DNA from: Actinomycetes bacterium
Lineage (GTDB): Bacteria; Actinomycetota; Acidimicrobiia; Spongiisociales; JAHEDJ01
Assembly: GCA_024641245.1 (NCBI GenBank)
Contig: JAHEDK010000002.1
Coordinates: forward strand, 167,136 to 231,135
Length of the DNA: 64,000 nucleotides
Direction: 5' to 3'
Shown: one piece after another, positions 48,795 to 64,000 of the stretch
How the letters are laid out: each line of letters opens with the position of its first letter
Numbering within the stretch: position 1 is the first letter of the stretch
Notes under the pieces: model-generated
Seen by the model: the letters and a program-made list of their open reading frames with translations, nothing else
Database searches by the model: none
What the model was told of the DNA's origin: nothing
Program-made: the position numbers and the translations under genes

Positions 48795-49484
48795 ATGCAG
48801 AGAACAAACGAGCTGACACAAGGCGCGCGGCGGCTGGCCTGGTTGACACTTTTGACGCTCGCATGGTTGTTGTGGATGAGTCAGGCGGCCGCCCACGCCC
48901 AGGAACTCCCGGTACGGGATGATCCGTTCTGGAAGACGGACACCTGCCTCGGCTGCCATCAGCAGTCGGACCTGTCGGTGACGCTGCCATCCAACGAGAC
49001 GCTGCGCCTCGCCGTGTATAGAGGCGCGTACGAAGATTCGGTGCATGGTCGAACAGGAGTGGCCTGCCGCAATTGCCATCTCGACATCACGGGGTATCCG
49101 CACCCTGATCTCACCGCCGGAAGCCTGGCCGAGTTCTCAGAACAGCAGGCCAGTTCTTGCGAGATGTGTCACCGTGACCACTACGGCAAAGTGGCGGATG
49201 AGCTGCATGAGGAGTCCGGTGGGTTGCTGTGCTTCGAGTGTCATGATCCGCACACCACCGGCACCGGCTCCGTCTCGGCAGAAGTGCAAGCCTCCTGCAA
49301 CGCCTGCCACTCCGAGGGTATCGCCATTCCTGTCGAGGGGATTCATGCCGCGCCCGAGGTACCTGTCGCGGAGACCACAAGCGGCGTTACAATCCTGCTC
49401 ATCCTCGGCGGAATCTTCGTCGGTTTCGTCGTCCTCGTCTGGCTGGCGACGGTGGCTTGGCGTGTCGTGCGCGACCGAAGCTGA
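48795..49484 (+). CDS. Pentaheme c-type cytochrome with signal peptide and C-terminal TM anchor
   Basis: CLGCH, CRNCH, CEMCH, CFECH, CNACH. C-terminal hydrophobic helix (ILLILGGIFVGFVVLVWLATVAW). Confidence 0.8.
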   Translation: MQRTNELTQGARRLAWLTLLTLAWLLWMSQAAAHAQELPVRDDPFWKTDTCLGCHQQSDLSVTLPSNETLRLAVYRGAYEDSVHGRTGVACRNCHLDITGYPHPDLTAGSLAEFSEQQASSCEMCHRDHYGKVADELHEESGGLLCFECHDPHTTGTGSVSAEVQASCNACHSEGIAIPVEGIHAAPEVPVAETTSGVTILLILGGIFVGFVVLVWLATVAWRVVRDRS

Positions 49485-49625
49485 TCGGGCCCGTTTCCGC
49501 AGGTTAGCTTGTAGCAATTCCCAATCTTGTGCGCCCTTTCACATGGGTCGAATGACCCTACGCGATCTGCGCGCGGATCCGTCATCATGTCGGTACACGA
49601 GTCGAGTAGCTCCCGGGGAGGAAGC

Positions 49626-51698
49626 ATGAGTCGATTTCGACACACACGCTTGGTTGTGCTTGTCGCCCTGCTGATGGTCTTAGCGGCCTGCACGAGCAGC
49701 GCCGACGACACCACCACTACGGGAGCGGAAGGGTCAACGCCCACGACAGCTCCACCGGTCGTCGAGCCGGCGGAATCCGAGCTCGTGGTTCCGTTCCTAG
49801 CGGCCTGGGTCGGTTCTGGACACAACGACGCGACTGCTGAAGCCTTCGTGCACTGGAATGAGGACGACCCCCAGGTCATTCCGACCAGTTGCGCGAAGTG
49901 CCACAGCACCCCCGGTCACCTCGATTTCCTCGGAGCCGACGGCAGCCCGTTCGGCAGCGTTGAAGCCGACGCCCCCATCGGGACCACGATCCAATGCGAA
50001 GCGTGCCACAACGATGTCACGATCTCCCTGGACAGCGTCGTGATGCCATCGGGTCTCGAACTCACCGGCCTCGGCGACGAATCCCGTTGCATGAACTGCC
50101 ACCAGGGCAGGGAGTCCAAGATCAGCGTGGACGCATCGATTACCGAAGCGGGCGTCGAAGAGGACACCGTCTCCGAGGATCTGGGTTTCCGGAACATCCA
50201 CTACTTCGCGGCTGCCGCCACCAAATACGGTACCGAAGCCAAGGGTGGCTATGAGTACGAGGGCAAGACGTACGATGCGTTCTTCGTCCACGTCGAGGGA
50301 TACTCGACCTGTATTCAGTGCCATGATCCGCACACGCTGGAACTGAAGATCGCCGAATGCTCGACATGCCACACCGGTGTCGCCACGGTTGAGGATCTCC
50401 GAGATGTCCGTATGCCGGGATCACTCGTCGACTTCGACGGAGACGGGAATCTCGAAGAGGGCATCTACTACGAACTCGAGGGCGTGCGGGGACTCTTGCT
50501 CCAGGCCATTCAGGCGTATGCCTCCGAGGTGGCGGGAACCGGCATCACCTACGATGCCAACGCCTACCCGTACTTCTTCGATGAGGCCGGCAAGGGCTTT
50601 GGCGCGTGGACCCCGCGTCTGCTCAAAGCGGCGTACAACTATCAGGTGTCCCTCAAGGACCCGGGAGCATTCGCGCACGGTGGCAAGTACATCCTCGAGT
50701 TGATGTACGACTCGATCGAGAACCTCAACGAAGCCATCTCGTCGCCCATCGACATGACGGCGATGCACCGAATCGACCACGGGCACTTCGCCGGGTCCGA
50801 GGAAGCCTTCCGGCACTGGGACGAGGATGGCGCCGTGCCGGCTTCGTGCTCACGGTGCCACTCGGCTGGAGGCGTGCCGCTGTATCTGCAGGAAGGCGTG
50901 ACGATAACCCAGCCAACTTCCAACGGGTTCAACTGCTCGACGTGCCACAACAGCACGAGCGAGTGGACCCGGTATGAGGTCCTCGATGTGACCTTCCCGA
51001 GCGGTGCGACTATCGACAGCGGCGACCAGAACGCCAACCTTTGCATGACCTGTCACCAGGGCCGTGAATCCGGCGCAAGCGTCGACCGGCGGATCGGAGA
51101 CACCGGGGCGGATACCGTCAGCGACACACTTGGCTTCATCAACGTGCACTACCTGCCGGCGGGCGCCACGCTCTTCGGCAGCGAGGCAGCGGGTGGCTAC
51201 CAGTACGCCGGGCAGACCTATGCCGGAGCCAACGATCACCCCATCGCCACGTGCACGGGTTGCCACAGCGCCCACACACTACAGGTTGAGGTTGAGGCCT
51301 GCGGGGGTTGCCATCAGGGGACGAACTCTGAAGAAGACCTGCAGGACATCCGCATCACCGCCGGCGACTTCGATGGTGACGGCGACGAGGCCGAGGGCAT
51401 CGCCGGAGAGGTCGAGACCATGCGCGAAGCCCTGCTGGCGGCGATGCAGGCGTATGCGGACGCCACGGACGGCGTGAGCCCGATCGTGTACGACGCCCAC
51501 GCCTATCCGTACTTCTTCAACGACGCCGGTGAGAGCTATTCGACCTGGACGCCGCGTCTGCTGAGGGCCGCCTACAACTACCAGTACGCAACGAAGGACC
51601 CTGGTGCGTTCGCCCACAACCCGGCCTACGTGCTCGAGTTGTTGTATGACTCGCTGGCGGACATCGGCGCCGACGTGACGGGGCTGATCAGGCCGTAG
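49626..51698 (+). CDS. Decaheme c-type cytochrome lipoprotein with internal pentaheme duplication
   Basis: GGGAGGAAGC SD before the ATG. Lipobox LAAC. 10 CxxCH. Repeated blocks (NIHYFAAAATKYGTEAKGGYEYEGKTY / NVHYLPAGATLFGSEAAGGYQYAGQTY; AYPYFFDEAG...TPRLLKAAYNYQ occurs twice). Confidence 0.8.
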   Translation: MSRFRHTRLVVLVALLMVLAACTSSADDTTTTGAEGSTPTTAPPVVEPAESELVVPFLAAWVGSGHNDATAEAFVHWNEDDPQVIPTSCAKCHSTPGHLDFLGADGSPFGSVEADAPIGTTIQCEACHNDVTISLDSVVMPSGLELTGLGDESRCMNCHQGRESKISVDASITEAGVEEDTVSEDLGFRNIHYFAAAATKYGTEAKGGYEYEGKTYDAFFVHVEGYSTCIQCHDPHTLELKIAECSTCHTGVATVEDLRDVRMPGSLVDFDGDGNLEEGIYYELEGVRGLLLQAIQAYASEVAGTGITYDANAYPYFFDEAGKGFGAWTPRLLKAAYNYQVSLKDPGAFAHGGKYILELMYDSIENLNEAISSPIDMTAMHRIDHGHFAGSEEAFRHWDEDGAVPASCSRCHSAGGVPLYLQEGVTITQPTSNGFNCSTCHNSTSEWTRYEVLDVTFPSGATIDSGDQNANLCMTCHQGRESGASVDRRIGDTGADTVSDTLGFINVHYLPAGATLFGSEAAGGYQYAGQTYAGANDHPIATCTGCHSAHTLQVEVEACGGCHQGTNSEEDLQDIRITAGDFDGDGDEAEGIAGEVETMREALLAAMQAYADATDGVSPIVYDAHAYPYFFNDAGESYSTWTPRLLRAAYNYQYATKDPGAFAHNPAYVLELLYDSLADIGADVTGLIRP

Positions 51699-51707
51699 CG
51701 TGACAGA

Positions 51708-51745: not shown

Positions 51746-51794
51746 CTTCTTGCGTCACTTTGGGGCTCGATGTGCCCGGAAGTGACGCAAGAAG
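51746..51794. repeat. REP-like palindromic element (CTTCTTGCGTCAC - 23 nt - GTGACGCAAGAAG)
   Basis: Same TTCTTGCGTCA core as 7471-7525. It abuts the DUF559 stop codon. Confidence 0.5.
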
Positions 51795-51796: not shown

Positions 51797-52720
51797 TCAA
51801 GCAGCCTGGTGGATCGCGGCCAGGACTTCCGCAACAACGGAATCCGGCCGGCCAATCAGGTCCCACCAGGTGTATCGAAGCGTTCTCCAGCCGAGTAGCT
51901 CTGTCTGGTTCTGGATCACGCGGTCTCTGCGAAACGTGGGGCGATCCATGTGAAACGCTTCGGAGTCGAGTTCGATCCGCAGGCGGTGCTCGATGAAGGC
52001 GAAGTCGGCCCGGCATACGAACGTCCCGTCAGGGTTTCTGATCTCCACCTGTGGCGTCGGTTGCGGCGTACGGAGCCCCCACGACCGGCGAAACAGATCT
52101 TCCAGTTCGCTCTCGGTGACGCCATCCCAGTGGAGCCGCTGCTCGACGAACGGCCGTATGACCCCGACTCCCCTGCGGCCGCGCCTGGCGACCCGGCCGA
52201 CCAGCGCGGCAACACCTTCGAGCGTAAAGCTCCGAGTTCTCAGACCTCTATCGAGAGCCGACTCGACCAGCCACGGCGCGCTGGCGCCCAGATCGACGAC
52301 CGTTCGGACCGGAGTGGTCACCGGGATACCCGAGACCTCCGCCGAGTCCTCGGGAGCGAGATCGGTCGACTCGTGAACGACGAACTCCTGATGCGCCCGA
52401 TTCCAGCGGGGCATCACTACCTCGATGCGCGGAGGCTTGCGATCAACCAGGCCGTGCAGGAATGCAGCGGTCTGGTGGGAGGCCAGCGCCAGATCGCCTG
52501 CGGTCGTGGTCGCGATGAGCACGGCCTGATGCCAGTCGCGCGGCACGGCGGGGAAAACGTACGTGCGGTAGGCCACCCGCTCGAGCACTCCGCGGGACGT
52601 CAAACCTTTCAACTGATCTGAGCTGAGCCCTGCCTCAATGACAGCAGCACGATCGACTACGCCGTGTCGCAAGGCGGCCCTCTGAGTGAGAATCTGCAAC
52701 GGTGTCATGCCCAACACCAT
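51797..52720 (-). CDS. DUF559 (Vsr-like endonuclease fold) protein with N-terminal AbiEi-like HTH region
   Basis: C-terminal DUF559 pattern (FVCRADFAFIEHRLRIELDSEAFH). The track ORF extends to 52912 through the REP elements. Start placed at MVLGMTPLQIL. Confidence 0.55.
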   Translation of the reverse strand: MVLGMTPLQILTQRAALRHGVVDRAAVIEAGLSSDQLKGLTSRGVLERVAYRTYVFPAVPRDWHQAVLIATTTAGDLALASHQTAAFLHGLVDRKPPRIEVVMPRWNRAHQEFVVHESTDLAPEDSAEVSGIPVTTPVRTVVDLGASAPWLVESALDRGLRTRSFTLEGVAALVGRVARRGRRGVGVIRPFVEQRLHWDGVTESELEDLFRRSWGLRTPQPTPQVEIRNPDGTFVCRADFAFIEHRLRIELDSEAFHMDRPTFRRDRVIQNQTELLGWRTLRYTWWDLIGRPDSVVAEVLAAIHQAA

Positions 52721-52753
52721 CAAGGTTGGGTGTGACAAATCCCGAACCCAGTG

Positions 52754-52872
52754 AACTTGCGTCAGAAACGGGCGCCGGCCGCCCCAAACTGACGCAAGAA
52801 AGGGATAGGGGCGCCACCTTCTCGTTCTTGCGTCAGTGTTCCGAGCAACGGGCCCAGAAGTGACGCAAGAAT
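52754..52872. repeat. Two tandem REP-like palindromic units (arms at 52754-65/52789-801 and 52823-36/52859-72)
   Basis: Four copies of the TTGCGTCAG/CTGACGCAA core in alternating orientation, upstream of the DUF559 gene. Confidence 0.5.
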
Positions 52873-52939
52873 GAGGAGAGACAGAGAAGTGGGGAGCCTT
52901 TCGGCTCCCCACTTCGGGTGTTCGTTAAGCGACTCTTGT

Positions 52940-53935
52940 CTACGGCAGGCGGCCTGCTCCGTGGCAACTCACGCAGAGGGCATCCGGGATGTTCTTCAGC
53001 AAGTACGCCTTGGTAGACGTATGCGGATAGTCGAAGGATGTCCCATCATCGGGATTGCCGTGGCAGCGCGTGCAGCGCGGATGGTTGTTGTGCGTTTCCG
53101 AGTCCACTCTTGGCTCGTGGCACGATCCGCACCACGCATCCGACCCATCCCGTCCGTCCCACACCAGTGGTGCGTTGGCGAACTGGAAGTTCGGGTTGCG
53201 CGACAACAGCTTGTACCCGTAGGCGTACGAAGTGAAGGCATCACCGTCGGAGTCCTCGAGCGTCGCGTAAGCACAGGCAGCGTTGAATCCGTCTCCAAGC
53301 ACCACCGCGCCATCAGCGGCTGCGCACCAATGCCAGACACCTTCGGCCCCGTCGAAATCGAGGGCCAAAGGAGCACCCCTGCTACCAGCGGCAACAGTTG
53401 TGCCCTCATCGGCAGGGTATACCCACTTGTTGATCAATTGGCCGAAGTCACCGTGTGGCGTGTGGCAGGTGCCGCACGACAACGAGCCTTCGACGGCCGA
53501 GTTCGTAGTACGGCCGTCATACCCGAAAATGAACGCACCATCAGGGCTCACCGAAGCCCCCGGCGTGTGTCCGTTCCCCAGGTTGGAGCTGTACACAGCC
53601 CGATCCGAGGCGGTACCCGACGGCGCTGCCGCCGACCAACCAGGTCGCGGACCTGTGGGATCGGCGCCCATATAGCTATGGCAGGTCGCACAGACGGCCT
53701 CGATGCTGGACAACGCCATCAACGCGTAGGCGCCGGCGGCGTCGTGCACGTCGTGACACTGCAGGCAGAAGTCCGTCGAGGCGCTGTAGCCACCGTGGGG
53801 CGACACGTTGCCGTCATAGGGATCTCCTAGTGCTGGTGGCTCCGTCGGCGTCTGCGCGACGGCAGCCGTCATCGGCACCAACAACGCAGCCACCATGCAG
53901 ACAACGAGACCGACGGTTCGTATTCGTCGTCTCAA
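52940..53935 (-). CDS. Secreted hexaheme c-type cytochrome
   Basis: CLQCH, CATCH, CGTCH, CGSCH, CTRCH, CVSCH. Start taken at TTG 53935 (GGGAGGAGG SD 5 nt upstream), giving signal peptide LRRRIRTVGLVVCMVAALLVPMTAAVAQ. Alternative ATG at 53896. Confidence 0.7.
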   Translation of the reverse strand: MRRRIRTVGLVVCMVAALLVPMTAAVAQTPTEPPALGDPYDGNVSPHGGYSASTDFCLQCHDVHDAAGAYALMALSSIEAVCATCHSYMGADPTGPRPGWSAAAPSGTASDRAVYSSNLGNGHTPGASVSPDGAFIFGYDGRTTNSAVEGSLSCGTCHTPHGDFGQLINKWVYPADEGTTVAAGSRGAPLALDFDGAEGVWHWCAAADGAVVLGDGFNAACAYATLEDSDGDAFTSYAYGYKLLSRNPNFQFANAPLVWDGRDGSDAWCGSCHEPRVDSETHNNHPRCTRCHGNPDDGTSFDYPHTSTKAYLLKNIPDALCVSCHGAGRLP

Positions 53936-54249
53936 TTCACCCTCCTCCCGATCGGGCGCTAGCCCGACGTCATGGGAGCCGACCGCTCCCTCCAGTCCCT
54001 TTCCAAACCGTTCCCCGTGCCGCCCTGCGACTCGGGGTGCCCAATCAACGATCAGGATAATCAGACCTTTTAGGTCAAAATATGCCGATAGCACTTGGCG
54101 TATTCATCACTCTATGTGTTTGTCGACACGGCGTCAAGTTGGAGAAGGGCCCCATAACGACAGGGCCGTTCGGCCCTATCAACGAGGCACACCGCACTAC
54201 CGAAATCGGCCGGAACAGGTATTATTTATCTCAGGGTGGCGGAGGATAA

Positions 54250-55752
54250 TTGACCAAACTCGTCAAGTTTCGAGTAATGGGTGTATTTCGTCAGCGGATC
54301 GTGCTTGCGACCACGCTGAGCGTTTTCTTCGGCGTTCTCACGTTCCTGCCGGCTGCAGCCGGGCCCGGCCAACCCGCGGACGCAGCAGCAAGTTCGATGC
54401 CCCTCACAATCCTTGCGATGGCGCAGGCAGCTGAGTTCCCGGATCCCCACGGCCTCCTCAACGCCAACAGCAACGGGTGTCTCTCCTGCCACGACACACA
54501 CGACGCGCCCGGGCCGGCGTTGCTGGCAACTGCCACCGAAAAGGAAGCCTGCTACCGGTGTCACGATGGGAGCGGTGCCACGGCCAACATCCGGGCAGCA
54601 TTCGGTGAGTCGATACTCGGGGAGAGTACCCAACGTTCATACCATCCCCTCCCCCACGCGCTCGACGGATACTCGGTAACTTGTGGCGACTGCCACACGC
54701 CGCATCAGGCTCGATCCGAGTTCACGAAGCTCCTGCGTATCAACGACGGTTCCGGCGGCTGGGTCTACTCGCCGACCGACACACCGATTGGCAACACCTA
54801 CTGCTACCGGTGCCACGGCACCGATTCTCCATTCCCCGCACCATTCGGCGATCAGACCACGTTCGAGGGAGGCGTACACCAGGTGCTCGGTGGCGATCCT
54901 CCCTCGGGATCGGGCATCCAGTGCGTGAACTGTCACGACGGCCACGGTTCGGCCTACCCGGGCCTCTCGCAACAAGAGGCCACCTGCTTCACCTGCCACA
55001 ACACGGCAACGCCCAACACCAACCCCGATCTGCCCTTCGACACCACCGAACTCGAGTACGCCTTCACGGCCGTAGCCAACGACTACGACGCCACCGACGC
55101 CGACGGCTTGATTCGCATCTACCACCACCCCATCGGCGACGATGAACAAGACGGCGGGAGCCGTCGGGTCGAGTGCGCCTCATGCCACAACGCTCATCGA
55201 GTTGACCGCGACTACTCAGGAACTGGGAGCAAGATTTCGAATCCGGGAGACACCCGGGGGGACGTCGCCATTACGTGGACGGACGGCACGTTCACCCGGG
55301 GCACCATCTCACAGTTTTGCGTTGCGTGTCACCAGGACCCGGCCACGACCGCTCCAATCAACGCCGGCACCTGGGTCCCCTACGACATACGGCTCACCGA
55401 CGACTCAGCCGTCCTCAACGGGAGCGGCGGACCCCACGACACTTTCGACGCAACGTACTATTTCACCAACGAACGGTCTGACCACGGTGCGGGCGCCCAA
55501 CTCGCCTGCACCGCCTGCCACGACCCGCATGGCTCATCGAACGCCTACATGTTGCGCGAGAATGTGATCAGCCCTGGCGGAGCGGGTGTGCCCGCCGGCA
55601 CCGTCGGCCCTCGGGTGACCGGATTCGTCGATGAGGACACCCCAGAACAACAGACAATCCTCTCGGGCTTCTGTGGCAGCTGCCACGGCGATCACCACAC
55701 CCCCAACAGGCTCTGCACACAGTGCCACAATCACGGATCGCCGCGGTTCTGA
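54250..55752 (+). CDS. Secreted undecaheme c-type cytochrome
   Basis: 11 CxxCH (CLSCH, CYRCH, CGDCH, CYRCH, CVNCH, CFTCH, CASCH, CVACH, CTACH, CGSCH, CTQCH). TTG start with GGAGG SD and signal peptide. Alternative ATG at 54277. Confidence 0.75.
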   Translation: MTKLVKFRVMGVFRQRIVLATTLSVFFGVLTFLPAAAGPGQPADAAASSMPLTILAMAQAAEFPDPHGLLNANSNGCLSCHDTHDAPGPALLATATEKEACYRCHDGSGATANIRAAFGESILGESTQRSYHPLPHALDGYSVTCGDCHTPHQARSEFTKLLRINDGSGGWVYSPTDTPIGNTYCYRCHGTDSPFPAPFGDQTTFEGGVHQVLGGDPPSGSGIQCVNCHDGHGSAYPGLSQQEATCFTCHNTATPNTNPDLPFDTTELEYAFTAVANDYDATDADGLIRIYHHPIGDDEQDGGSRRVECASCHNAHRVDRDYSGTGSKISNPGDTRGDVAITWTDGTFTRGTISQFCVACHQDPATTAPINAGTWVPYDIRLTDDSAVLNGSGGPHDTFDATYYFTNERSDHGAGAQLACTACHDPHGSSNAYMLRENVISPGGAGVPAGTVGPRVTGFVDEDTPEQQTILSGFCGSCHGDHHTPNRLCTQCHNHGSPRF

Positions 55753-55936
55753 TGACAGACCCGACCTCCATCACCCGGCGAATGCCATTGGGCCCTACAG
55801 GACACAATTCGACCGCGGGTACCGTCGCGTTAGGACCCGCGGGTGCTGTCAGGAACCGCGGATTGGGCCACATGGGAGAGAGGCGAGGGCCCGCAATGGT
55901 TTGTGAATGCCGTGAGTGGTCGAGAGGGGGCCCACG

Positions 55937-56362
55937 GTGTTGATCACCCGCGAGGTCGACTACGCCGTGCGCTGTGTTCTCGACGTAGCCCGCACCGGGC
56001 ACACCTCCACCGGAGCAGTCGCCGAACGGGCCGGGATACCCCCATCGATCCTCGGGCGCATCGTGGCGGCTGTATCGAAAGCCGGCATACTCACTACCAG
56101 ACGAGGAGTCAAAGGCGGCATCGATCTTGCGCGCGATCCAAGCGAGATCAGCCTGCTTGACGTCATAGAGGCGGTGCAAGGTCCGCTCTTCGTCAACATC
56201 TGCTGCGAGCATCCCGAAACCTGTGACGCCGCTACCAACTGTCCGATCCGACCCGTCTGCGAGGACGCCTTCGACGAGCTGAGACGGGTCTTCTCGGTGA
56301 CCTACGACACATTGCTCAACGGCGGCCACGTTCCTCTCCGCCCGTTCGTCCAAGAGGAGTAG
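55937..56362 (+). CDS. Rrf2 family transcriptional regulator (IscR/NsrR-like, three conserved Cys)
   Basis: N-terminal wHTH (LITREVDYAVRCVLDVA). Cys triad (NICCEHPETCDAATNCPIRPVC), the spacing of Fe-S-binding Rrf2 proteins. Confidence 0.75.
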   Translation: MLITREVDYAVRCVLDVARTGHTSTGAVAERAGIPPSILGRIVAAVSKAGILTTRRGVKGGIDLARDPSEISLLDVIEAVQGPLFVNICCEHPETCDAATNCPIRPVCEDAFDELRRVFSVTYDTLLNGGHVPLRPFVQEE

Positions 56363-56423: not shown

Positions 56424-57296
56424 ATGAAGCGACGAACCCAGCTTTACGCGCTCGGCGGACTCCTCATTGTTGTTTCGTTTGCCGCCTGGCGGTTGACGGA
56501 CGATCCGGCAATCGAACCACCGCTGATCCCGATCGCAGCAACCGCCGTGGTCGCAGACTCCGACTTCGACGCGTGCCTCGAGTGCCACGACGACATCGAG
56601 CAATCCCTCCAAGCCGGACTGGTGCAACTCATCGGATTTCGACACGAAGAGCACTTCTCGAATTCCGGCGACGTCGGTTGCGGCAACTGCCACGGTCTCG
56701 ACACGCACGATCGCACCCCGCCGCAGGCACCGACCATGGAGGATTGTTTTTCGTGCCACCTCGACGCCGGGCCGGCTGCCGAGTTGCCGTGTCTCCGCTG
56801 TCACGACAACGCCACTGTGCCACCGCCGCAGAGCCACTTCACCTCAGAGTGGCGCGACGTTCACGGCTCCGGCGCCCTGCTCAGCCAGTCGCTGTGCGAG
56901 ACCTGCCACTCGCGACAAGATTTCTGCACGGCGTGCCACGGTGTCGATATTCCGCATCCAGACGGATGGACCGGCTATCCACACGCACGTGCGACGTTCG
57001 ATTCGGGCATCGAGTCGTGTGCACGCTGCCACGAGCGCGGTCCGGAACTGACGGCTCGCGACGAATGTGACGGCTGCCACCATCCGCAGAACCCCGCAGA
57101 ACCCATCTGGAAGGATGCTCACCCAGAGGTGGTCCGAAGCCAGGGTGGCTCGACGTGCTTCGAGTGCCACGACCCCAACACATGCGCCACATGTCACACA
57201 TCGGGAGTTGAAGACTTCTCCGCCGATCTCAACCGGCTCGAAGTGCCCGGCCCACCAAAGGTCACGGAGTCACCGCCCGAGGACGGTGACTCGTGA
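56424..57296 (+). CDS. Membrane-anchored decaheme c-type cytochrome
   Basis: N-terminal TM helix. 10 CxxCH (CLECH, CGNCH, CFSCH, CLRCH, CETCH, CTACH, CARCH, CDGCH, CFECH, CATCH). Confidence 0.8.
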   Translation: MKRRTQLYALGGLLIVVSFAAWRLTDDPAIEPPLIPIAATAVVADSDFDACLECHDDIEQSLQAGLVQLIGFRHEEHFSNSGDVGCGNCHGLDTHDRTPPQAPTMEDCFSCHLDAGPAAELPCLRCHDNATVPPPQSHFTSEWRDVHGSGALLSQSLCETCHSRQDFCTACHGVDIPHPDGWTGYPHARATFDSGIESCARCHERGPELTARDECDGCHHPQNPAEPIWKDAHPEVVRSQGGSTCFECHDPNTCATCHTSGVEDFSADLNRLEVPGPPKVTESPPEDGDS

Positions 57297-58309
57297 GTCT
57301 GTCCCCGGTACCCATCGGACCGGCGGGACGCTCGCCCGGAATCCCATTCCCGGCACCACCGACCGCCCTCCGGCGATTCTCAACGCAACCACCGCCACCT
57401 CCCGACGGCGAGCCATCTCGCCGTCCCGAGCTTCGTGCCCTCGGTGACGGGGCGGGCTCGGGAAGGGACAACAGGGCATCGGAGCCACGCGGGTCTCGCT
57501 GGCTTCGGCGCCTCGTCATCATCGTCGCGACCGTCGGCGCCCTCGTATTCGTCGCCTCCTGGAGCTACGCCTCGTCATCGCGCAACATGTGCGGAAGCTG
57601 TCATAGCGTCTCGGCGGCTGCAGAATCCGCCGGTGATTCGGTGCACGCAGATATCCCGTGCCTCGCCTGCCACAGGCAAGCGGGCATCGTCGGAGCGTTC
57701 ACCTACCTCCCTGTGCTGCTGCGCGAGTCTGTTCACGAGCTGACTGGACTCTCTATCGCCGAAGGAGTGCTCGACCCCGTCGGATGTGGTTCTTGTCACT
57801 CTTTCCTATCCGACGCGGCGGCGCGAGGCGATCATCCGGACGAGACAGCAGAATGCTCGTCCTGCCACGGCAACGTAGCCCACCCGGGAGCCGGGACGGC
57901 TCCGGAAGGGGACGGCCATCCGTCCGGGTTCTTCGCTTTCCACGGCCGGGATTCCGTCGCTTCGCCCGGATCATGCGCAGAATGCCATAAGAACGACTTC
58001 TGCTCGGCCTGCCACTTCCGCACGGAGTATCCGCATCCGGAAACCTGGACGTCGCTCCATGGTCCGGCGTCAATCGAAGGCGGCCCCGCTGCTTGTGTGA
58101 TGTGCCACGAGCCCACGTACTGTTCGAGCTGTCACGGCGCCGACATCCCCCATCCGGACAACTGGTTCGAGATCCATCATCGGGCAACCGACCCGGCAGT
58201 CGGGTCGGCCTGCCTATCGTGCCATGCAGCCTCCGAGTGCTCCTCCTGCCACGTCCGGCACTCAGTTCACAACGAGCAAGGGCTCTACCAGTGGGACCTC
58301 AAGCCATGA
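57293..58309 (+). CDS. NapC/NirT-like membrane-anchored decaheme c-type cytochrome (candidate quinol dehydrogenase)
   Basis: GTG overlaps the upstream stop. TM helix, then SSRNMCGSCH...CLACH, typical of NapC/NirT N-termini. 10 CxxCH in total. Confidence 0.75.
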   Translation: MSLSPVPIGPAGRSPGIPFPAPPTALRRFSTQPPPPPDGEPSRRPELRALGDGAGSGRDNRASEPRGSRWLRRLVIIVATVGALVFVASWSYASSSRNMCGSCHSVSAAAESAGDSVHADIPCLACHRQAGIVGAFTYLPVLLRESVHELTGLSIAEGVLDPVGCGSCHSFLSDAAARGDHPDETAECSSCHGNVAHPGAGTAPEGDGHPSGFFAFHGRDSVASPGSCAECHKNDFCSACHFRTEYPHPETWTSLHGPASIEGGPAACVMCHEPTYCSSCHGADIPHPDNWFEIHHRATDPAVGSACLSCHAASECSSCHVRHSVHNEQGLYQWDLKP

Positions 58310-59157
58310 AAGGCATCCGGGTGCTCATGACTGTGGTCCTCACTCTCGTACTCGCTGAGGTGACGCTCGTGGCCTTCGTGACCTTCTCCGAGGATGCCCG
58401 GGGCGCGGTCACCGACGCGTGGGCCAAGACCGTGAACGCGTGGGCCGGCTCGGAGGAGCGGGCAGGCAATTTCGAGCTGCTCCTGTCGTCTGCAGACGAG
58501 TTCGCTGCTGAATGGGTCCAGCCATTGTGGAGCGCGCCGGAGGCGGCTCCGGCCGGCACCGGATTCTCCGAATGCGTGACCTGCCACACGGATTACGCCG
58601 AACGTCGCCTGTTCACCGGCGTCTTCATGAATCATCCACTGCATTCGGAGTTGGGAATCGCGTGCGCCGAATGCCACACCGACGTTGCGCATCCCCTCCC
58701 TCTCCCTCCGGCCGAAGAGACTTGTGCAGGGTGCCACAATCAAGTCGAACGAGACGGCCCGGCCTCCGACTGTAGCTATTGCCACAAACCTGGCTCGCTG
58801 GCGCACTATCAGTCACTTGGCGTTCCCGACGGAGCCGCCAACTGCAGCACCTGCCACCTTCCGGATTCGTTCGGGCACACCGATCAGCACGCCTTGACGG
58901 TTACTCCAAGCTTCGATGGAACCGATTCCGCCGTCTGCCTCAACTGCCATCAGGCGGCCGCCTGCGCTCGATGCCATGATTCCTCCCACCCGGCCGACTG
59001 GGTATCCCTTCACGGCGCAGAGGTCCAGGACGCCGGTACCGGCGCCGGCTCCTGCGCGGCGTGTCATTCGACAAACTGGTGCGCTGGAGCCTGCCACCTG
59101 AGTGGAACTCTCCAGGGCGGCAGGCTGCTCCCCCTACCGATCGGAGACGATGACTGA
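58306..59157 (+). CDS. Membrane-anchored octa/nonaheme c-type cytochrome
   Basis: ATGA overlap. N-terminal TM helix. 8 CxxCH plus one CxxxCH (CAGACH). Confidence 0.75.
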   Translation: MKGIRVLMTVVLTLVLAEVTLVAFVTFSEDARGAVTDAWAKTVNAWAGSEERAGNFELLLSSADEFAAEWVQPLWSAPEAAPAGTGFSECVTCHTDYAERRLFTGVFMNHPLHSELGIACAECHTDVAHPLPLPPAEETCAGCHNQVERDGPASDCSYCHKPGSLAHYQSLGVPDGAANCSTCHLPDSFGHTDQHALTVTPSFDGTDSAVCLNCHQAAACARCHDSSHPADWVSLHGAEVQDAGTGAGSCAACHSTNWCAGACHLSGTLQGGRLLPLPIGDDD

Positions 59158-59819
59158 TGGCGAATCGACGAACCTTGCTCGTGCTCGTGGGCACGATCGG
59201 TGCGGTGGCAGCTGCTGCGGCCATCTGGATCGTAGGCGGCGCCGATCCGGATCCACTCATCGCCGAGGTGGATGGGATTCCGATCCGGCAATCACAAGCG
59301 GACTCGCGGATTGAAGGCATCGCCTCGATTCACGGCGACATCACGACGACGCTCGGTAGCGAGTGGAGAGCCACCGTGCTGCAGTCCCTCGTCGATGACG
59401 TGATCGTTCAGATCGAAGCCGACCGGAGATCCCTCGAACCGACCGATGCCGATCTCGAACAAGCAGTCGCCGATACCAAGGCAATGGTGGGTACCGATGC
59501 GGACTGGGAGATCTGGCTTACGGACCAGGGGCTCGACGACGAGGAAGTTGAGCGGCGCCTGACCACCCAGATCAGGACCAACCGTGTGTACGACGCGGTC
59601 ACCGCCGATGTGACTATCGCGCGCACCGACCTCGAGGCCTACTACGAGGCGAACCTCGACCAGTTCACCGTCGACGGCGCCGTCAGAGAACTCTCCGAGG
59701 TCGAAGAGCAAATCAAGGTGGCCGTTGAAAGCATGATGCGAGATCGCGTCTACGCCGAGTGGATCGACGCCCGCCGGGCCGAAGTCATCCTGGAGGTGGT
59801 GCACGATGACTGGCGATAG
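59157..59819 (+). CDS. SurA-N-like membrane-anchored chaperone domain protein
   Basis: Overlaps the upstream stop by 1 nt. Signal-anchor, then an acidic helical domain resembling the SurA N-terminal chaperone region. No PPIase domain seen. Confidence 0.45.
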   Translation: MANRRTLLVLVGTIGAVAAAAAIWIVGGADPDPLIAEVDGIPIRQSQADSRIEGIASIHGDITTTLGSEWRATVLQSLVDDVIVQIEADRRSLEPTDADLEQAVADTKAMVGTDADWEIWLTDQGLDDEEVERRLTTQIRTNRVYDAVTADVTIARTDLEAYYEANLDQFTVDGAVRELSEVEEQIKVAVESMMRDRVYAEWIDARRAEVILEVVHDDWR

Positions 59820-60480
59820 GCAACCCGCCGACAGGGAGCAGAATGTCAACGTCCTCCTGGTCATTGTCGGCTTGTTGACGCTCCTCGTGGTCGGGCTCGG
59901 TGCAGCCGTTGTCTTCATCCAACTCAACTCCGATCCGGTCCCCCAGACGGTTGCCGAACGGGACCTCAATCTCTGGCTGCGCCTCGCCGACGACAATCCT
60001 GATGCCGTATGGGCACAGGTCGGCCTGGGGCAAGCACACCTGGCAGGCCAGGATATGGAGGCCGCCCGGGCTGCCTTCGCAGCGGCCCTGGCCATCGATC
60101 CGGCTTCGCCGGAAGCACTGTTCCAGATGGGGCTCCTCGTCCGAGCAGAGGATCCGAATCTGGCCGTCGATTACCTTCGGCGAGCCGTCGAAGCCGCAAC
60201 GGGAGCAGACAAGGCGCGCCCGAACCTGGCGCTCGGAGATCTTCTGATGGAGCGAGGCGACTGGGAAGCGGCGCGGCTGGCCTATGAGTCGTCCATAGCC
60301 AATCTCCCCTTCCTATTGCCCGCGCACCTGGGACTTGCCCGGTCCCTCGAAGCGCTCGGTGACTCCGACGGTGCCCTTGCCGCCTACCTCCAGGCCTCGG
60401 CCTTCGATCCGACGGATCCCGAGATCAAGGAGGCGATCACTCGCCTCGGAGGCACCCAACCCGAGACAACGAACCCGTAG
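59806..60480 (+). CDS. Membrane-anchored TPR repeat protein
   Basis: TM helix, then three or four TPR-like repeats (AQVGLGQAHLAGQDMEAARAAFAAALAIDP...). Confidence 0.55.
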   Translation: MTGDRQPADREQNVNVLLVIVGLLTLLVVGLGAAVVFIQLNSDPVPQTVAERDLNLWLRLADDNPDAVWAQVGLGQAHLAGQDMEAARAAFAAALAIDPASPEALFQMGLLVRAEDPNLAVDYLRRAVEAATGADKARPNLALGDLLMERGDWEAARLAYESSIANLPFLLPAHLGLARSLEALGDSDGALAAYLQASAFDPTDPEIKEAITRLGGTQPETTNP

Positions 60481-60488: not shown

Positions 60489-61655
60489 ATGGACAGACCA
60501 CCACCAGGACCGATTGCGCACCAGCCACCGCCGTCTCCAGCGCCGGAATCGGGCAATGCCACCCAGACCACTCGCCGCCTAATGATCGGCATGATCATCG
60601 TGCTGTCACTCGCTGCCATCGGCCTGCTCATCCTCCTCCTGTTGCTCCTTCGATCCGGGGAGGAGCCCCAGTCGCTGGCGATGCCCGACGATTGCCCGCT
60701 CGACATCTCCCGCTCGGTATACGGATACGGAGCGGAGTTGGATCAGTTGCTCAACAAGCCGCTGGCCGTCACATTCGACGGCAGTGAGAACCTCTGGGTC
60801 TCCGATACCGGGAACGGGCGGGTCCTGGCACTCGACACCGATGGGAACCTTCTCAGAATCATCGGCACCGAGGAGGGGGCCGGCCGAATGTTCAGCCCGT
60901 ATGGCCTCGCCTTCGATGAGACCTACCAACGGCTCTACGTTGCCGACTGGACAGCCCGATTCGTGTTCATCTATTCGCCGGACGGGCGGTACATCGAGCG
61001 CATACCCGCAGATGACCAGGATTTGACGATCTTCGGCGAAGCCGGGTTCACGCCGTTCCATGTCGAGGTATGGGGGGCGCAGATAATCGTCTCCAGCAAC
61101 GATGGGCTGTATTTCTTCGACCGGGCGGGGCATGTCACCGACCACTGGGGCCAACGTGGGGCTGAGGCCGGGGAGTTTGCGTTCCCCGATGCCTTCGACA
61201 TCGACCGCACCGCCGGAACGTTCTACGTCGCGGACACTCTCAATCGTCGGGTCGTCGCACTCGATTCCGCAGGCGAAGTCCTGTGGATCTCCGGCCGGCC
61301 AGACCAGGCAGGGGCAATCACCGGGTTCTGGCAGCTCCCGCGGTCTATCACCGTCGGGCAGGACGGAAATGTGTACGTCGTCGACACATTCAGGGCGCAG
61401 GAGAAGTGCTCCGGGATGGGACACGTTGTGGTGCTCGATCCCGGCGGCGAACTCGTCTCCGAATTTGGAGCGGCCGGCAGCCAGGAATGGGCGTTCAGTT
61501 TCCCGGAGAAGCTCGCAATCGGTCCAAACGGTACATTCGGGCTCGCTGACCGAGAAAAGGGTCGCGTGGTGGTGTTCGACGTTGGACAGCTTCCACCGGC
61601 CGACGAGTCCGAGGCGGACAAGTACCTGCAATCGTTCACCCGCTTCGATGATTGA
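60489..61655 (+). CDS. Membrane-anchored NHL-repeat (six-bladed beta-propeller) protein
   Basis: Leucine-rich TM helix, then repeated NHL-like blades (NLWVSDTGNGRVLALD; RLYVADWTARFVFIYS; TFYVADTLNRRVVALD; NVYVVDTF...; RVVVFD). Confidence 0.65.
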   Translation: MDRPPPGPIAHQPPPSPAPESGNATQTTRRLMIGMIIVLSLAAIGLLILLLLLLRSGEEPQSLAMPDDCPLDISRSVYGYGAELDQLLNKPLAVTFDGSENLWVSDTGNGRVLALDTDGNLLRIIGTEEGAGRMFSPYGLAFDETYQRLYVADWTARFVFIYSPDGRYIERIPADDQDLTIFGEAGFTPFHVEVWGAQIIVSSNDGLYFFDRAGHVTDHWGQRGAEAGEFAFPDAFDIDRTAGTFYVADTLNRRVVALDSAGEVLWISGRPDQAGAITGFWQLPRSITVGQDGNVYVVDTFRAQEKCSGMGHVVVLDPGGELVSEFGAAGSQEWAFSFPEKLAIGPNGTFGLADREKGRVVVFDVGQLPPADESEADKYLQSFTRFDD

Positions 61656-61799: not shown

Positions 61800-62909
61800 A
61801 TGCGCACCAAGCTGCAAGGGTTCGCTCTGTGGGGGATGCTGTTCTTTGCCGTCGTCGGACTCACGGCCCTGTCGGCCGACCCGGCCTCAGCGCAGGATTC
61901 CGCCGACTCGGAAGTCAACAACTACTGCCTGGGATGCCACGAATCCGGGAACATCATTCTCACGTTCCCGTCGGGGGAGATGCTTCCCGCCGTGGTGCCG
62001 CGTACCGTTTTCGACGCCTCTATCCACGGTCAGGTCGGCCTCACCTGCATCGCCTGTCATACCGATATCGGGCAGTACCCACACGACCCCATGTCGGCCG
62101 TCACCCGGCGAGACCTGGCGATCGAGTTGTACACCACGTGCTTCAACTGCCACGAGAGCGAATACACCGACACGCTCGACAACATGCACACCGAAGCTCT
62201 CGCCGGCGGCAACCGGGAAGCCGCCGTCTGCACCGACTGCCACGGCGCTCACAACGTCACCCACCCCAGCGTCGACACAACGGCCATCCCGCGCACCTGC
62301 CGGAACTGCCACTCCGAGATCTACGACCTGTACGCCGGCAGCATCCACGGTGCCGCCCTACTCGAACACGACAATCAGGACGTTCCAAGCTGCACGAGTT
62401 GTCACGGCGTCCACAGTGTTGAAGGACCCTCGCACTCGCAATTCCACCTGTTCTCACCGAAAATCTGCGAGGACTGCCACGCCGATGAAGCTCTCATGGG
62501 CAAGTACGGGATCAGCACGGCGGTCTTCGACACCTACGTAGCCGATTTCCACGGCACGACGGTCATGCTCTTCGAGGAACTGGCGCCCGACCAGAAGACC
62601 AACTCGCCGGTCTGTATCGACTGCCACGGCGTGCACAACATCCTGGCCGCCAACGAGGTCGACTCGACCGTCTACAAGGAGAACCTGCTCCTCACCTGTC
62701 AGCGGTGCCACCCAGACGCCACCGCCAACTTCCCCGACTCGTGGATGAAGCACTACCAACCGACCTCCGACCAGGCGGTCCTTGTCTGGCTGGTCAATTG
62801 GTTCTACCGACTCGTCATCCCCGGCGTCGTGGGGGGCATGCTCGTCTGGGTGACGATCGACGGCATTCGCCACTTGCAGCATCGACGGAAGGCGGCCGAG
62901 AGTGTCTGA
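61800..62909 (+). CDS. Nonaheme c-type cytochrome with signal peptide and C-terminal TM anchor (CbcL periplasmic-domain-like)
   Basis: 9 CxxCH (CLGCH, CIACH, CFNCH, CTDCH, CRNCH, CTSCH, CEDCH, CIDCH, CQRCH). C-terminal helix WLVNWFYRLVIPGVVGGMLVWV. Confidence 0.8.
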   Translation: MRTKLQGFALWGMLFFAVVGLTALSADPASAQDSADSEVNNYCLGCHESGNIILTFPSGEMLPAVVPRTVFDASIHGQVGLTCIACHTDIGQYPHDPMSAVTRRDLAIELYTTCFNCHESEYTDTLDNMHTEALAGGNREAAVCTDCHGAHNVTHPSVDTTAIPRTCRNCHSEIYDLYAGSIHGAALLEHDNQDVPSCTSCHGVHSVEGPSHSQFHLFSPKICEDCHADEALMGKYGISTAVFDTYVADFHGTTVMLFEELAPDQKTNSPVCIDCHGVHNILAANEVDSTVYKENLLLTCQRCHPDATANFPDSWMKHYQPTSDQAVLVWLVNWFYRLVIPGVVGGMLVWVTIDGIRHLQHRRKAAESV

Positions 62910-64000
62910 CGTCCTTGAGCGCGCAGCAGTCGACGTCGAACTGGACGATCGGATACTGCGTTTTGGAAAGGCGGATCGCATCGAGCATGCGGTCCAGGTA
63001 ATCAGCTTCGCCGGCCTCGGCCTCACTGGGCTGATCCAGAAGTTCTTCGAGTCGGCGATTTCTCAGTGGTGGATTGAGTTCCTTGGTGGGTTGCCACAGG
63101 TGCGCGTCATTCATCGCTGGCTGGCGACCATCCTCATGCTCGCCGTCATCTGGCACTTCGGTAAAGCCGGATATCGCACGTACGTCGAACGGCGACCGCG
63201 AGCCATGGTCCCGAGCAAGCGCGACTGGATTGCCATCAAGGAATCGATCGCGGTGCTGGCGGGACGGCGTCACGAACCTGTGAAACAAGGTCGATTCACG
63301 TTCGCGGAGAAGGTCGAGTACTGGTCGTTCGTCTGGGGCACCGTCTTGATGATCGCCACCGGCTATATGCTGTGGAACCCGATTTCCACCGCCAAGTTCC
63401 TCCCCGGTGATTTCATCCCGGCCGCCAAAGCGGCACACGGTGGAGAAGCGATCCTGGCTGTGCTGGCCATCCTCGTCTGGCACATCTACCACGTGCACAT
63501 CAAGCATTTCAACAAGAGCATCTTCACCGGCTACATCAGCCGGGCAGAGATGATCGAAGAACATGGCCTCGAACTCGAGGCGATGGAGGCGGGCAAGACC
63601 GGTCCGCAGGCGACACAAGCCGAGATTGTGGAGCGGCGGCGCAAGTTCCTTCCCGCCTTCGGTGTTGTGGCGGTCCTCATGATGGCCGGCATCTACTGGT
63701 TCGTGAGCTTCGAGGATACGTCGATCGCCACCATCGAGCCCATCGAAAACGTGGTGGCATACAAGCCACTGCCTCCTGAACAGCAGAGCGGCCCGGCGCT
63801 TTCTGGTGACAATCCGCTCCCGACCATCGTCATCCCCGACACCACCCTCCCCACCGAGACGACGGTGCCGCAGGGTGAAGTCACATGGGCCACGGTTGGG
63901 CCCGTTCTGGCCGATAGCTGCGGTACGTGCCATTCGGCCTCGAACTCCATGGGCGGGCTCGACCTTTCGTCGTACGAGGGGGCGCTGGGTTCCGAGGGAG
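62902..64000 (+). CDS. Di-heme b-type cytochrome (FdnI/HydC cytochrome b561 family) with C-terminal c-type heme domain; 3' end outside window
   Basis: Not in the ORF track because it has no stop in the window. GTG overlaps the upstream stop (GTGTCTGA). Four TM helices with His ligands (HRWLATILMLAVIWH; HGGEAILAVLAILVWHIYHVH). The C-terminal soluble region has CGTCH. Confidence 0.6.
   Translation, partial: MSDVLERAAVDVELDDRILRFGKADRIEHAVQVISFAGLGLTGLIQKFFESAISQWWIEFLGGLPQVRVIHRWLATILMLAVIWHFGKAGYRTYVERRPRAMVPSKRDWIAIKESIAVLAGRRHEPVKQGRFTFAEKVEYWSFVWGTVLMIATGYMLWNPISTAKFLPGDFIPAAKAAHGGEAILAVLAILVWHIYHVHIKHFNKSIFTGYISRAEMIEEHGLELEAMEAGKTGPQATQAEIVERRRKFLPAFGVVAVLMMAGIYWFVSFEDTSIATIEPIENVVAYKPLPPEQQSGPALSGDNPLPTIVIPDTTLPTETTVPQGEVTWATVGPVLADSCGTCHSASNSMGGLDLSSYEGALGSEG

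Follow-up and report, generated by a model that had tools for sequence, protein, structure and literature searches.

In a 64,000-nucleotide stretch of an Acidimicrobiia genome (contig JAHEDK010000002.1; the whole stretch is called the window below), we analysed the dense run of multihaem c-type cytochrome genes at positions 48795-64000, whose open reading frames (ORFs) are labelled g1-g14 from left to right, and found that it is the distal half of a larger respiratory block, because Rieske/cytochrome b6 gene sets and cytochrome c maturation (Ccm) genes fill the interval from 34.1 to 48.7 kb. The block appears to encode a multihaem path that would lead from the menaquinone pool to the outside of the cytoplasmic membrane, and extracellular electron transfer (EET) is its best reading, one that we consider probable on balance. 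Several features favour electron transfer over catalysis, and a site outside the cytoplasmic membrane: the axial ligands suffice for every haem, with no catalytic motif; neither a partner enzyme nor a porin is encoded; the decahaem protein g2 bears a lipobox and a long linker; adhesin-type domains occur in relatives of g2 and of the secreted cytochrome g5; and the modelled fold of g2 is that of OcwA and OmhA, two Gram-positive surface reductases known from experiment.

The density of CxxCH motifs is the plainest feature of the region. A first-pass annotation had put their number in the window at about 80, and a six-frame translation count gave 79. Seventy of them lie in 48795-64000, every one within a long ORF with coding-type GC content at third codon positions (GC3 0.70-0.84), while the first 35.7 kb (1-35,700) is free of them in all six frames, as are two of the three minus frames over the whole window. 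Since the CxxCH-free remainder of the window serves as an internal control, this density is far above chance and not an effect of composition. The first-pass annotation had described a 15-kb island; the motif density behind that description is real, but the cytochrome-related block begins further upstream, at 34.1 kb, so that it totals about 30 kb (34.1-64 kb), and it is not a compositional island, GC content being flat across the window (0.61-0.65). We also rejected a horizontal-transfer island, given the flat GC content and the housekeeping nature of the flanking genes.

Where at least nine multihaem cytochromes had been claimed for 48795-64000, a strict count gives eight multihaem genes plus g14, which has two monohaem c domains when full-length. 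The CxxCH motifs per gene (5 in g1, 10 in g2, 6 in g4, 11 in g5, 10 in g7, 10 in g8, 8 in g9 with an additional CX3CH, 9 in g13 and 1 in the window-cut g14) agree with the haem numbers first assigned to the eight genes, and Pfam likewise confirmed the Rrf2, SurA-like, TPR, NHL and cytochrome b assignments. All cytochromes have at least two His or Met per haem. No catalytic haem motif, CxxCK included, was found in any cytochrome of the island, and no beta-barrel or porin-like gene was found among the scanned ORFs of the block. Signal peptides, single transmembrane (TM) anchors and one lipobox were identified across the island cytochromes. The genes and the one intergenic region of interest are as follows.

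48795-49484, plus strand: g1, pentahaem cytochrome; 5 CxxCH, 12 His, cleavable signal peptide (cleaved between AHA and QE), C-terminal TM helix (191-209)
49527-51698, probable start 49626 (690 aa), plus strand: g2, decahaem lipoprotein; 10 CxxCH, lipobox LAAC
51797-52912, minus strand: g3, AbiEi_1/DUF559 (restriction endonuclease-like) gene by Pfam, not a cytochrome
52940-53935, minus strand: g4, secreted hexahaem cytochrome; 6 CxxCH, signal peptide MRRRIRTVGLVV...AVA cleaved before Q, no anchor
53936-54249, 314 nt: divergent promoter region between g4 and g5; mildly AT-rich, 56.5% GC against ~63% for the window
54250-55752, plus strand: g5, secreted undecahaem cytochrome of the doubled-CXXCH (CxxCHxxH) type; 11 CxxCH, signal peptide, no anchor
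55916-56362, plus strand: g6, Rrf2-family regulator; Pfam Rrf2, 95.8 bits
56424-57296, plus strand: g7, decahaem cytochrome with N-terminal TM anchor; 10 CxxCH, ~26 residues per haem
57293-58309, plus strand: g8, TM-anchored decahaem cytochrome; low-complexity cytoplasmic tail, TM helix, NrfH/NapC-like tetrahaem part, six more haems
58306-59157, plus strand: g9, TM-anchored cytochrome; 8 CxxCH and one CX3CH
59157-59819, plus strand: g10, TM-anchored SurA_N_3 (PpiD/SurA N-domain-like) protein; Pfam 33.6 bits against a cut-off of 27.2
59806-60480, plus strand: g11, TM-anchored TPR protein; Pfam TPR families, weak CcmH/CycH TPR-domain match
60489-61655, plus strand: g12, TM-anchored six-bladed NHL beta-propeller; Pfam NHL
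61800-62909, plus strand: g13, nonahaem cytochrome, MtrA/DmsE/NrfB-like; 9 CxxCH, signal peptide, C-terminal TM anchor
62902-64000, plus strand: g14, FdnI/HydC-type cytochrome b, window-cut; Ni_hydr_CYTB 47.5 bits against 30.1

At the centre of the region, genes g7-g12 overlap by 1-14 nt or lie 8 nt apart, as the first description of a tightly overlapping set had it, and this spacing makes a single operon plausible. The three anchored cytochromes at its head, g7, g8 and g9, are distant paralogues of each other (26-29% identity) and together hold 29 haem sites at 24-32 residues per haem. In g7, all 10 motifs, 9 further His and 1 Met are invariant in 8 sequences, so the axial ligands suffice for ten six-coordinate haems. 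The TM helix of g8 (residues 69-94) is followed by CxxCH motifs at 100, 123, 165 and 188, a layout kept in 8 homologues, and residues 73-197 align with the whole NrfH chain (PDB 2j7a_C, E 3.7e-4); g8 is NapC/NrfH-like rather than an assigned member of that family, and is a candidate quinol dehydrogenase. The ninth site of g9 is a CX3CH within the C-terminal WCAGACH (WCxxxCH), and its conservation in 8/8 homologues indicates that g9 is probably a nonahaem cytochrome.

The operon continues with g10, g11 and g12, each of which has one N-terminal TM helix. The SurA_N_3 protein g10 lacks a parvulin domain and had no match in the PDB, and it is a putative extracytoplasmic chaperone. PDB matches of g12 are NHL propellers, including the extracellular sensor domain of Mycobacterium tuberculosis PknD. 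Upstream of the operon, the Rrf2-family protein g6 combines a winged helix with three Cys (Cx6Cx5CP) that are invariant in 7/7 sequences and of the kind that ligate a cluster, which suggests an Fe-S-sensing regulator resembling IscR, NsrR or RirA; g6 probably senses iron, redox state or NO.

We then considered how widely this arrangement is conserved. A word-indexed search over 5.8 billion proteins returned only 11 relatives of g7, and a profile search over 1.84 billion representatives returned 77 matches at E<1e-30, only some 15-20 of which were full-length, the remaining ones matching larger cytochromes over a repeated haem-pair unit. Among species-representative genomes, a scan identified eight metagenome-assembled genomes (MAGs) of Actinomycetota (uncultured Actinomycetes, Solirubrobacterales and a Coriobacteriaceae), with a best match of 41% identity. 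In six such loci and one metagenomic contig the order g7 (one or two copies)-g8-g9-SurA_N-TPR-NHL is kept at 35-51% identity, gene order in these relatives (loci L005-L012) being judged only as far as each contig extends. The Rrf2 gene lies upstream of the module in 7 relatives (48-64% identity), the NHL protein is 45-51% identical in relatives, and g10 and g11 are conserved in position. Because the Coriobacteriaceae locus (L013) holds the TPR and NHL genes ahead of g8/g9-like genes, the association survives rearrangement. A sister Acidimicrobiia MAG (L017) keeps the divergent pair g4 and g5, then Rrf2-g8-g9-SurA-TPR-NHL-g13-g14, and is without g7. Judged by this shared gene order, the g7-g12 operon is a real module.

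The surroundings of the module in relatives also have a usual form. On its 5' side stand CcmF, a CarboxypepD_reg protein, Rrf2, glutamyl-tRNA reductase (HemA) and a NapC/NirT hexahaem cytochrome; CcmF is upstream of the module in L008-L012, and HemA, which performs the first step of haem synthesis, lies with the NapC/NirT hexahaem between Rrf2 and the g7 homologue (positions 396-1712 in L005; likewise in L006 and L008-L012). A small TM protein of 106-124 aa is present between the g7 and g8 homologues. None of HemA, the NapC/NirT hexahaem and the small TM protein is found at the corresponding position in the window or the sister genome. In L010-L012 a Rieske/b6/subunit IV-c trio stands directly between the NapC-like gene and g7, and the closest match to this trio in the window is Rieske/b6 complex no. 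1, described below.

Of all the proteins of the block, g2 is the most informative. It consists of a signal peptide with a lipobox (LVLAAC), which fits the pattern [LVI][ASTVI][GAS]C and was judged by that pattern rather than by a dedicated predictor, then a Thr/Pro-rich linker of ~35 aa and two 5-haem repeats that share 44% identity. In 32/38 homologues, a lipobox at residues 17-25 is followed by a low-complexity linker of 30-55 residues. All 10 CxxCH motifs are invariant across 38 sequences, with a mean column identity of 60%, and since each repeat also has six invariant non-motif His, bis-His ligation is possible for all five of its haems. Both repeats additionally carry invariant CxxCHQGR, NxHY(F/Y)AA and DxDGDG-like loops.

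A structural model of g2 (pLDDT 80), in which both repeats end in three long helices, gave OcwA as its top Foldseek match, with OmhA and the NrfA fold likewise matched; as modelled, g2 is two tandem units of the NrfA/OcwA/OmhA fold, each a pentahaem core with a C-terminal three-helix bundle. At the sequence level, phmmer against the PDB found no match of g2 to OcwA at E<=1 and none at the level of NrfA (best E 0.057). The family is large, with more than 4,998 clusters as a lower bound, includes 15-haem forms and forms with Big_2 domains, and is 60-70% identical across Acidimicrobiia, Anaerolineales, Ardenticatenaceae and Abyssubacteria. Such strong constraint may mean that g2 is an enzyme, that it is bound tightly in a complex, or that its gene has spread only recently. 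Named proteins nearest to g2, g5 and g7 come from Acidimicrobiia or Actinomycetota MAGs, which bears out the taxonomic placement guessed at the outset.

Downstream of the module, g13 matches MtrA (PDB 6r2q_A, E 2e-7) and falls short of the DmsE/MtrA model TIGR03508 (51.4 bits against 192.2), having nine haems, a TM anchor and no barrel gene in the block. Its N-terminal half is paralogous to g1 (33% identity, E 1e-23, same topology). The reading frame of g13 overlaps that of g14, which matches formate dehydrogenase gamma/FdnI models (E 9e-15); read at full length from another assembly of the same organism (L003), g14 is a 500-aa protein comprising the cytochrome b, of the dihaem type, a Pro/Thr-rich linker and the two monohaem c domains (2 CxxCH). 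Likened by component parts, g13 and g14 are a split CbcL-like arrangement. Homologues of g13, g14 and g2 stand side by side in a Chloroflexota genome (45%, 42% and ~64% identity), and on this basis the three make up another functional unit beside the module, one whose parts in the window lie on either side of it.

The secreted cytochromes g4 and g5 are paralogous (27.5% identity) and are read divergently. Whereas the hexahaem gene had been given a start at 54094, g4 most likely starts at the TTG at 53935, because a GGAGG Shine-Dalgarno sequence precedes it and the start in the sister genome agrees; the AT-rich region placed between the two genes at 54095-54250 does exist as a divergent region, but with the limits and the only mildly AT-rich composition listed above. 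Of the 11 CxxCH motifs of g5, 7 are fully invariant in 24 homologues and the other 4 have at least one position conserved in >=90%. The g5 family is small and mostly confined to Actinomycetota, and many of its members carry N-terminal FlgD_ig, ZU5, fn3 or InlB-repeat domains, which are of Ig-like or adhesin type and typical of surface proteins. We rejected an OmcS identity for g4, since phmmer against the PDB gave no OmcS match at E<=10, and a nanowire identity for both g4 and g5, neither having a sequence match to any solved nanowire cytochrome.

The upstream part of the block, of whose Rieske/b6 genes the first-pass annotation mentioned only the octahaem fusion and the monohaem cytochrome c, comprises the following genes.

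34102-37669, plus strand: Rieske/cytochrome b6 complex no. 1 (Rieske 34102-34584; cytochrome b6 34581-35270; subunit IV-c ORF 35069-37669); Pfam Rieske, Cytochrome_B, Cytochrom_B_C and 7 stretches of Cytochrome_CBB3
37812-39608, plus strand: GltD-like FAD/NAD(P)-binding oxidoreductase with two [4Fe-4S] motifs; Pfam Pyr_redox_2, Fer4_20, Fer4
39536-41825, plus strand: Rieske/cytochrome b6 complex no. 2, assigned by Pfam and paralogous to no. 1 (approximate starts: b6 39536-40342; subunit IV 40182-40865; Rieske 40775-41368; monohaem cytochrome c 41307-41825)
41949-44615, minus strand: System I maturation genes ccmE, ccmC, ccmB and ccmA; Pfam CcmE, Cytochrom_C_asm, CcmB, ABC_tran
44805-46844, plus strand: ccmF, followed by ccmH at 46753-47250, plus strand; Pfam CcmF_C, CcmH
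47247-48080, plus strand: TPR protein in a CcmI-like position; Pfam TPR_16
48077-48685, plus strand: thioredoxin-like protein of CcmG/ResA type; Pfam AhpC-TSA/Redoxin

The true start of the subunit IV-c ORF is near 35270-35310, and the subunit IV of complex no. 1 carries eight tandem monohaem class-I c domains (8 CxxCH in frame). Relatives have one c domain at this position, and an eight-domain class-I chain on a bc-type complex is unusual. The GltD-like gene sits between the two Rieske/b6 gene sets; NAD(P) oxidoreductase subunits accompany the Rieske/b complexes of anammox bacteria, and by this analogy the arrangement might serve reverse or bifurcating electron flow. The Ccm genes form a complete System I set on both strands (41949-48685) that stops 110 nt before g1. 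Actinomycetota normally use System II for cytochrome c maturation, and the System I set may have been acquired together with the multihaem genes. The first-pass annotation had also left out the Ccm link, g3 and the conservation of the module across Actinomycetota.

Read as an EET system, the block would work in the following way, in which the order and direction of transfer, the crossing of the wall and the roles of the accessory proteins are inferred. Electrons would enter when quinol is oxidized by a Rieske/b6 complex with its haem-bearing subunit IV, by g8, and/or by g13 with g14. The anchored g7, g8 and g9, together with g1, would gather them and pass them along the outer face of the membrane, and the tethered g2 with the secreted g4 (6 haems) and g5 (11 haems) would deliver them to an insoluble or polymeric redox partner, electrons thus flowing to (or from) an external redox partner. 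Haems would be attached by the adjacent Ccm system, and expression would be governed by the Fe-S-type Rrf2 regulator g6. The PpiD/YfgM pair works at the Sec translocon; by analogy with it, drawn from the Pfam SurA_N_3 match and general knowledge of that pair, g10, g11 and g12 may be a dedicated chaperone and scaffold set for the export and arrangement of the cytochromes. The relay from membrane quinol oxidases to the surface that had been proposed earlier is consistent with the anchors, the lipobox, the NrfH-like g8 and the g13-g14 pair, but its passage through the wall is not evident in the sequence.

Several observations weigh against this interpretation. The scores of g8 are below curated cut-offs (Pfam Cytochrom_NNT 21.7 against 24.1; NCBIfam NrfH 27.4 against 134.2), an AlphaFold2 prediction for g5 from a 24-sequence alignment yielded no usable fold (pLDDT 39.8), no sortase motif was apparent at the C-terminal ends of g4 or g5 when these were inspected by eye, and no wall-binding domains were seen in the island proteins. 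The adjacency to Rieske/b6 genes is direct in only three relatives, and the complex in the window lies 19 kb from g7. The cross-phylum identity of the g2 family, at 60-70%, is a level more typical of enzymes than of electron wires, g2 homologues in Chloroflexota adjoin NrfC/NrfD-like genes, and g2 itself is modelled with the NrfA fold, which leaves a pathway for a soluble substrate as an alternative. We consider that alternative unlikely. It would make g13, g14 and g2 (with g1) an Nrf-like system for respiration or detoxification, in which electrons pass from a membrane quinol dehydrogenase through an NrfB/MtrA-like haem wire to a tethered NrfA-fold enzyme; this enzyme would reduce or oxidize a small molecule, for example nitrite, hydroxylamine, NO or a sulfur oxyanion, immediately outside the membrane, and the remaining cytochromes would be auxiliary carriers. 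The unusual conservation of g2 (60% mean column identity, and the same 60-70% between Actinomycetota and Chloroflexota) fits such a role, as do its invariant CxxCHQGR, NxHY and DxDGDG-type loops, which could form a pocket, the multihaem, Fer4 and NrfD modules resembling NrfBCD that adjoin the Chloroflexota homologues, the three-Cys pattern that g6 shares with NsrR-type Rrf2 proteins, and the slow reduction of nitrite and hydroxylamine by OcwA itself (PMC6703420). However, known catalytic haem motifs, CxxCK among them, are absent, the six invariant His per g2 repeat suffice for bis-His ligation, and the lipobox, long flexible linker and Big_2 variants of g2 point to a surface protein that reaches outwards. 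An Nrf-like system would also leave unexplained the 29 extra anchored haems, the two secreted cytochromes and the chaperone/scaffold set, with ~60 haems outside the g2-centred system unaccounted for, and the ORFs scanned in the window, which exclude a few shorter ones in its upstream part, include no gene for a nitrogen- or sulfur-cycle enzyme.

Inward flow is a variant of the EET reading, and the sequence does not separate the two; we assign a low probability to it as well. Here electrons would be taken up from Fe(II), minerals, an electrode or a partner by oxidative EET, and part of the flow would run uphill through a reversed Rieske/b6 complex and the GltD-like NAD(P) oxidoreductase to yield reducing power, for which the petI bc1 complex of Acidithiobacillus and the anammox Rieske/b complexes offer parallels. 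The two Rieske/b6 complexes flanking the GltD-like FAD/Fe-S oxidoreductase, the presence of Rieske/b6 and g7-g9 homologues in one gene string in L010-L012, and the set of PPIase (peptidyl-prolyl isomerase)-like, NHL, TPR and undecahaem proteins, as in the Uet cluster proposed for electron uptake in Candidatus Tenderia and Gallionella, all fit this direction, and several cultured Acidimicrobiia are Fe(II) oxidizers. Yet no Cyc2, cupredoxin or other iron-oxidation marker was found among the scanned ORFs of the window, there are no carbon-fixation genes nearby, the solved relatives closest to g2 (OcwA and OmhA) are reductases, and haem potentials, and hence direction, are not readable from sequence. 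Wiring that is purely internal seems to us quite improbable. The cytochromes would then link b6c-type complexes to oxidases or reductases at the membrane face, replacing the soluble cytochrome c that Actinomycetota lack, or would store charge, and no electrons would leave the cell. That most of the cytochromes are membrane-anchored, that eight c-type domains are fused to subunit IV of complex no. 1, that Rieske/b6 genes directly adjoin the module in the three relatives and that wall-binding domains were not seen would all suit it, but no terminal oxidase is encoded in or beside the block, and ~72 haem sites with two unanchored secreted cytochromes exceed what a link to an oxidase needs. The adhesin-type Ig/fn3 domains in relatives of g5 and g2, and a g2 fold that is that of known surface reductases, further argue for electrons leaving the cell.

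Among monoderms, Thermincola and Carboxydothermus are established cases of multihaem EET, and several parts of the block can be set against known systems. The pathway of Thermincola potens and T. ferriacetica comprises ImdcA, PdcA, CwcA and OcwA, and that of Carboxydothermus ferrireducens includes OmhA. OcwA is the characterized surface terminal reductase (outer cell-wall cytochrome) of Thermincola (PMC6703420); it has 9 haems, two of them high-spin, whereas g2 has 10 haems in two 5-haem units and is lipid-anchored. No Thermincola counterparts of the anchored g7-g9 were detected, and Thermincola is a Firmicute, whereas the present host belongs to the Actinomycetota and no S-layer link was seen. 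Compared with the CymA/NapC/NrfH family, g8 shares the TM helix and the first four haems but has ten haems and scores below the cut-offs. In Geobacter CbcL, nine c-type haems are fused to a HydC/FdnI-type cytochrome b; here the two parts are split over g13 and g14, with two extra monohaem c domains on g14, the likeness being judged by parts. In contrast to the Nrf system (NrfA with NrfB/NrfCD or NrfH), there is no CxxCK, and g2 is a tandem-duplicated lipoprotein with a linker. Decahaem-type wires are common to the block and to MtrCAB or porin-cytochrome conduits, and there are weak Pfam matches to MtrC/MtrF domains II/IV, but the present block lacks a beta-barrel gene, its host is a monoderm, and scores lie far below the DmsE/MtrA and OmcA/MtrC cut-offs.

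The combination of NHL, TPR and SurA-like proteins had been called an undescribed EET module, which overstates the case (PMC10376724; bioRxiv 10.1101/2022.05.06.490989). In the Gram-positive iron reducer Dethiobacter alkaliphilus, clusters expressed on ferrihydrite join a CymA/NapC-like quinol oxidase to several multihaem cytochromes and to proteins with NHL and TPR repeats; the authors propose that these repeat proteins aid the secretion and arrangement of the cytochromes (PMC10376724). The present block shares with them, by gene content rather than by protein homology, the multihaem cytochromes, the CymA/NapC-like protein, NHL and TPR; the Dethiobacter clusters also hold flavoproteins and ABC transporters that are absent here, whereas a SurA_N-type protein, Rrf2 and adjacent Ccm or Rieske/b6 genes are not reported there. 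The Uet cluster of Candidatus Tenderia electrophaga contains multihaem cytochromes, a peptidyl-prolyl isomerase, two NHL proteins, one TPR protein and maturation genes (bioRxiv 10.1101/2022.05.06.490989), and it is also found in Gallionella, with a proposed role in electron uptake (PMC10734462). Here the likeness is one of domain types only, in that an undecahaem, a PPIase/SurA-type protein, NHL, TPR and cytochrome maturation genes stand in one block. Uet is known from diderm hosts and includes the beta-barrel UetC, the cupredoxin UetF, trihaem c7 proteins and CcsAB (System II), whereas maturation here is by Ccm (System I), g10 has the SurA N-domain without a parvulin domain, and no UetC-type barrel, cupredoxin or trihaem c7 domain was found in the ORFs of 48.8-64 kb. 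NHL proteins also occur within cytochrome clusters of Desulfovibrio ferrophilus. Earlier work on actinobacterial MAGs has also turned up large numbers of multihaem cytochromes, with 37 in one Coriobacteriales genome (PMC7399161), and on the module or the g2 family in Acidimicrobiia or Chloroflexota we found only general statements about multihaem cytochromes in the literature.

Within the reach of our searches, three features appear to be new: the Actinomycetota-wide module with its HemA, NapC-like, b6c and Ccm links; the very widely distributed g2 family, recognized as lipoproteins built of tandem OcwA/NrfA-fold units; and the g13-g14-g2 trio held in common with Chloroflexota. Our most novel proposal, which we advance tentatively and with considerable doubt, is that Rrf2-(HemA-NapC hexahaem)-[Rieske/b6/subunit IV-c]-g7-g8-g9-SurA_N-TPR-NHL would be a previously undescribed, Actinomycetota-wide conduit of ~30 anchored haems coupled directly to a b6c-type complex, with its own PpiD/YfgM-like chaperone pair and NHL scaffold, and that monoderm sediment phyla (Actinomycetota and Chloroflexota) would use the g2 family as their chief external oxidoreductase. 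If true, the conduit and the g2 family would constitute a third Gram-positive EET architecture beside the Thermincola and flavin-based (FLEET) types, whereas the general idea of multihaem EET here would not surprise specialists. Actinomycetota and Chloroflexota are among the most abundant bacteria of soils, aquifers and sediments, where the cycling of iron, manganese and humic substances is usually credited to Proteobacteria and Desulfobacterota. Should the block be an EET system, g7-g12, g13-g14-g2 and the g2 family would provide a gene set with which to search metagenomes for electroactive monoderms. It also raises testable ideas on how a thick wall is bridged without a porin and on why NHL, TPR and SurA-like proteins recur beside multihaem cytochromes. 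If g2 is instead an enzyme, its family would add to the NrfA superfamily a large uncharacterized branch with a bearing on nitrogen or sulfur cycling.

Further observations concern the regulation and integrity of the region. Scans for sigma-70 promoters and terminators gave chance-level results. A perfect palindrome, AGGGCCGTTCGGCCCT, lies at 54162-54177 within the divergent region between g4 and g5, and near copies with 1-2 mismatches are found at 34017-34032, 44651-44666 and 55781-55796, respectively ahead of Rieske no. 1, in the gap separating ccmA from ccmF, and ahead of Rrf2. Across the window, 4/8 matches to the pattern fall in promoter regions, but we rejected a shared operator because the 8 observed matches compare with 5.0 +/- 2.4 in shuffled sequences and thus show no enrichment. 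The palindrome is kept in the sister genome, which is uninformative, as the entire intergenic region is ~88% identical; AGGGCCGTTCGGCCCT itself could be an operator, for example for Rrf2, or a product of chance.

The single non-cytochrome gene between g2 and g4, g3, is probably a mobile or defence-type insertion, and blastp found no homologue of it in the related loci L005-L012; its position is not comparable in the sister genome, where locus L017 stops ~860 nt past g4. An inverted repeat, CTTCTTGCGTCACTT/AAGTGACGCAAGAAG, lies beside g3 at ~51747-51793. In L017, an ISL3 transposase gene occupies a different spot of the block (9889-11148 of that locus), and g7 is missing there; the cytochrome region seems to tolerate insertions and gene loss. 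Finally, the first 34 kb of the window consists of housekeeping genes, including those for MgtE, NadE, GlnE, TyrA, AroG, RlmD and SelD, and the last of these, encoding selenide, water dikinase (4860-5813, minus strand), suggests that the organism uses selenium as selenocysteine or selenouridine.

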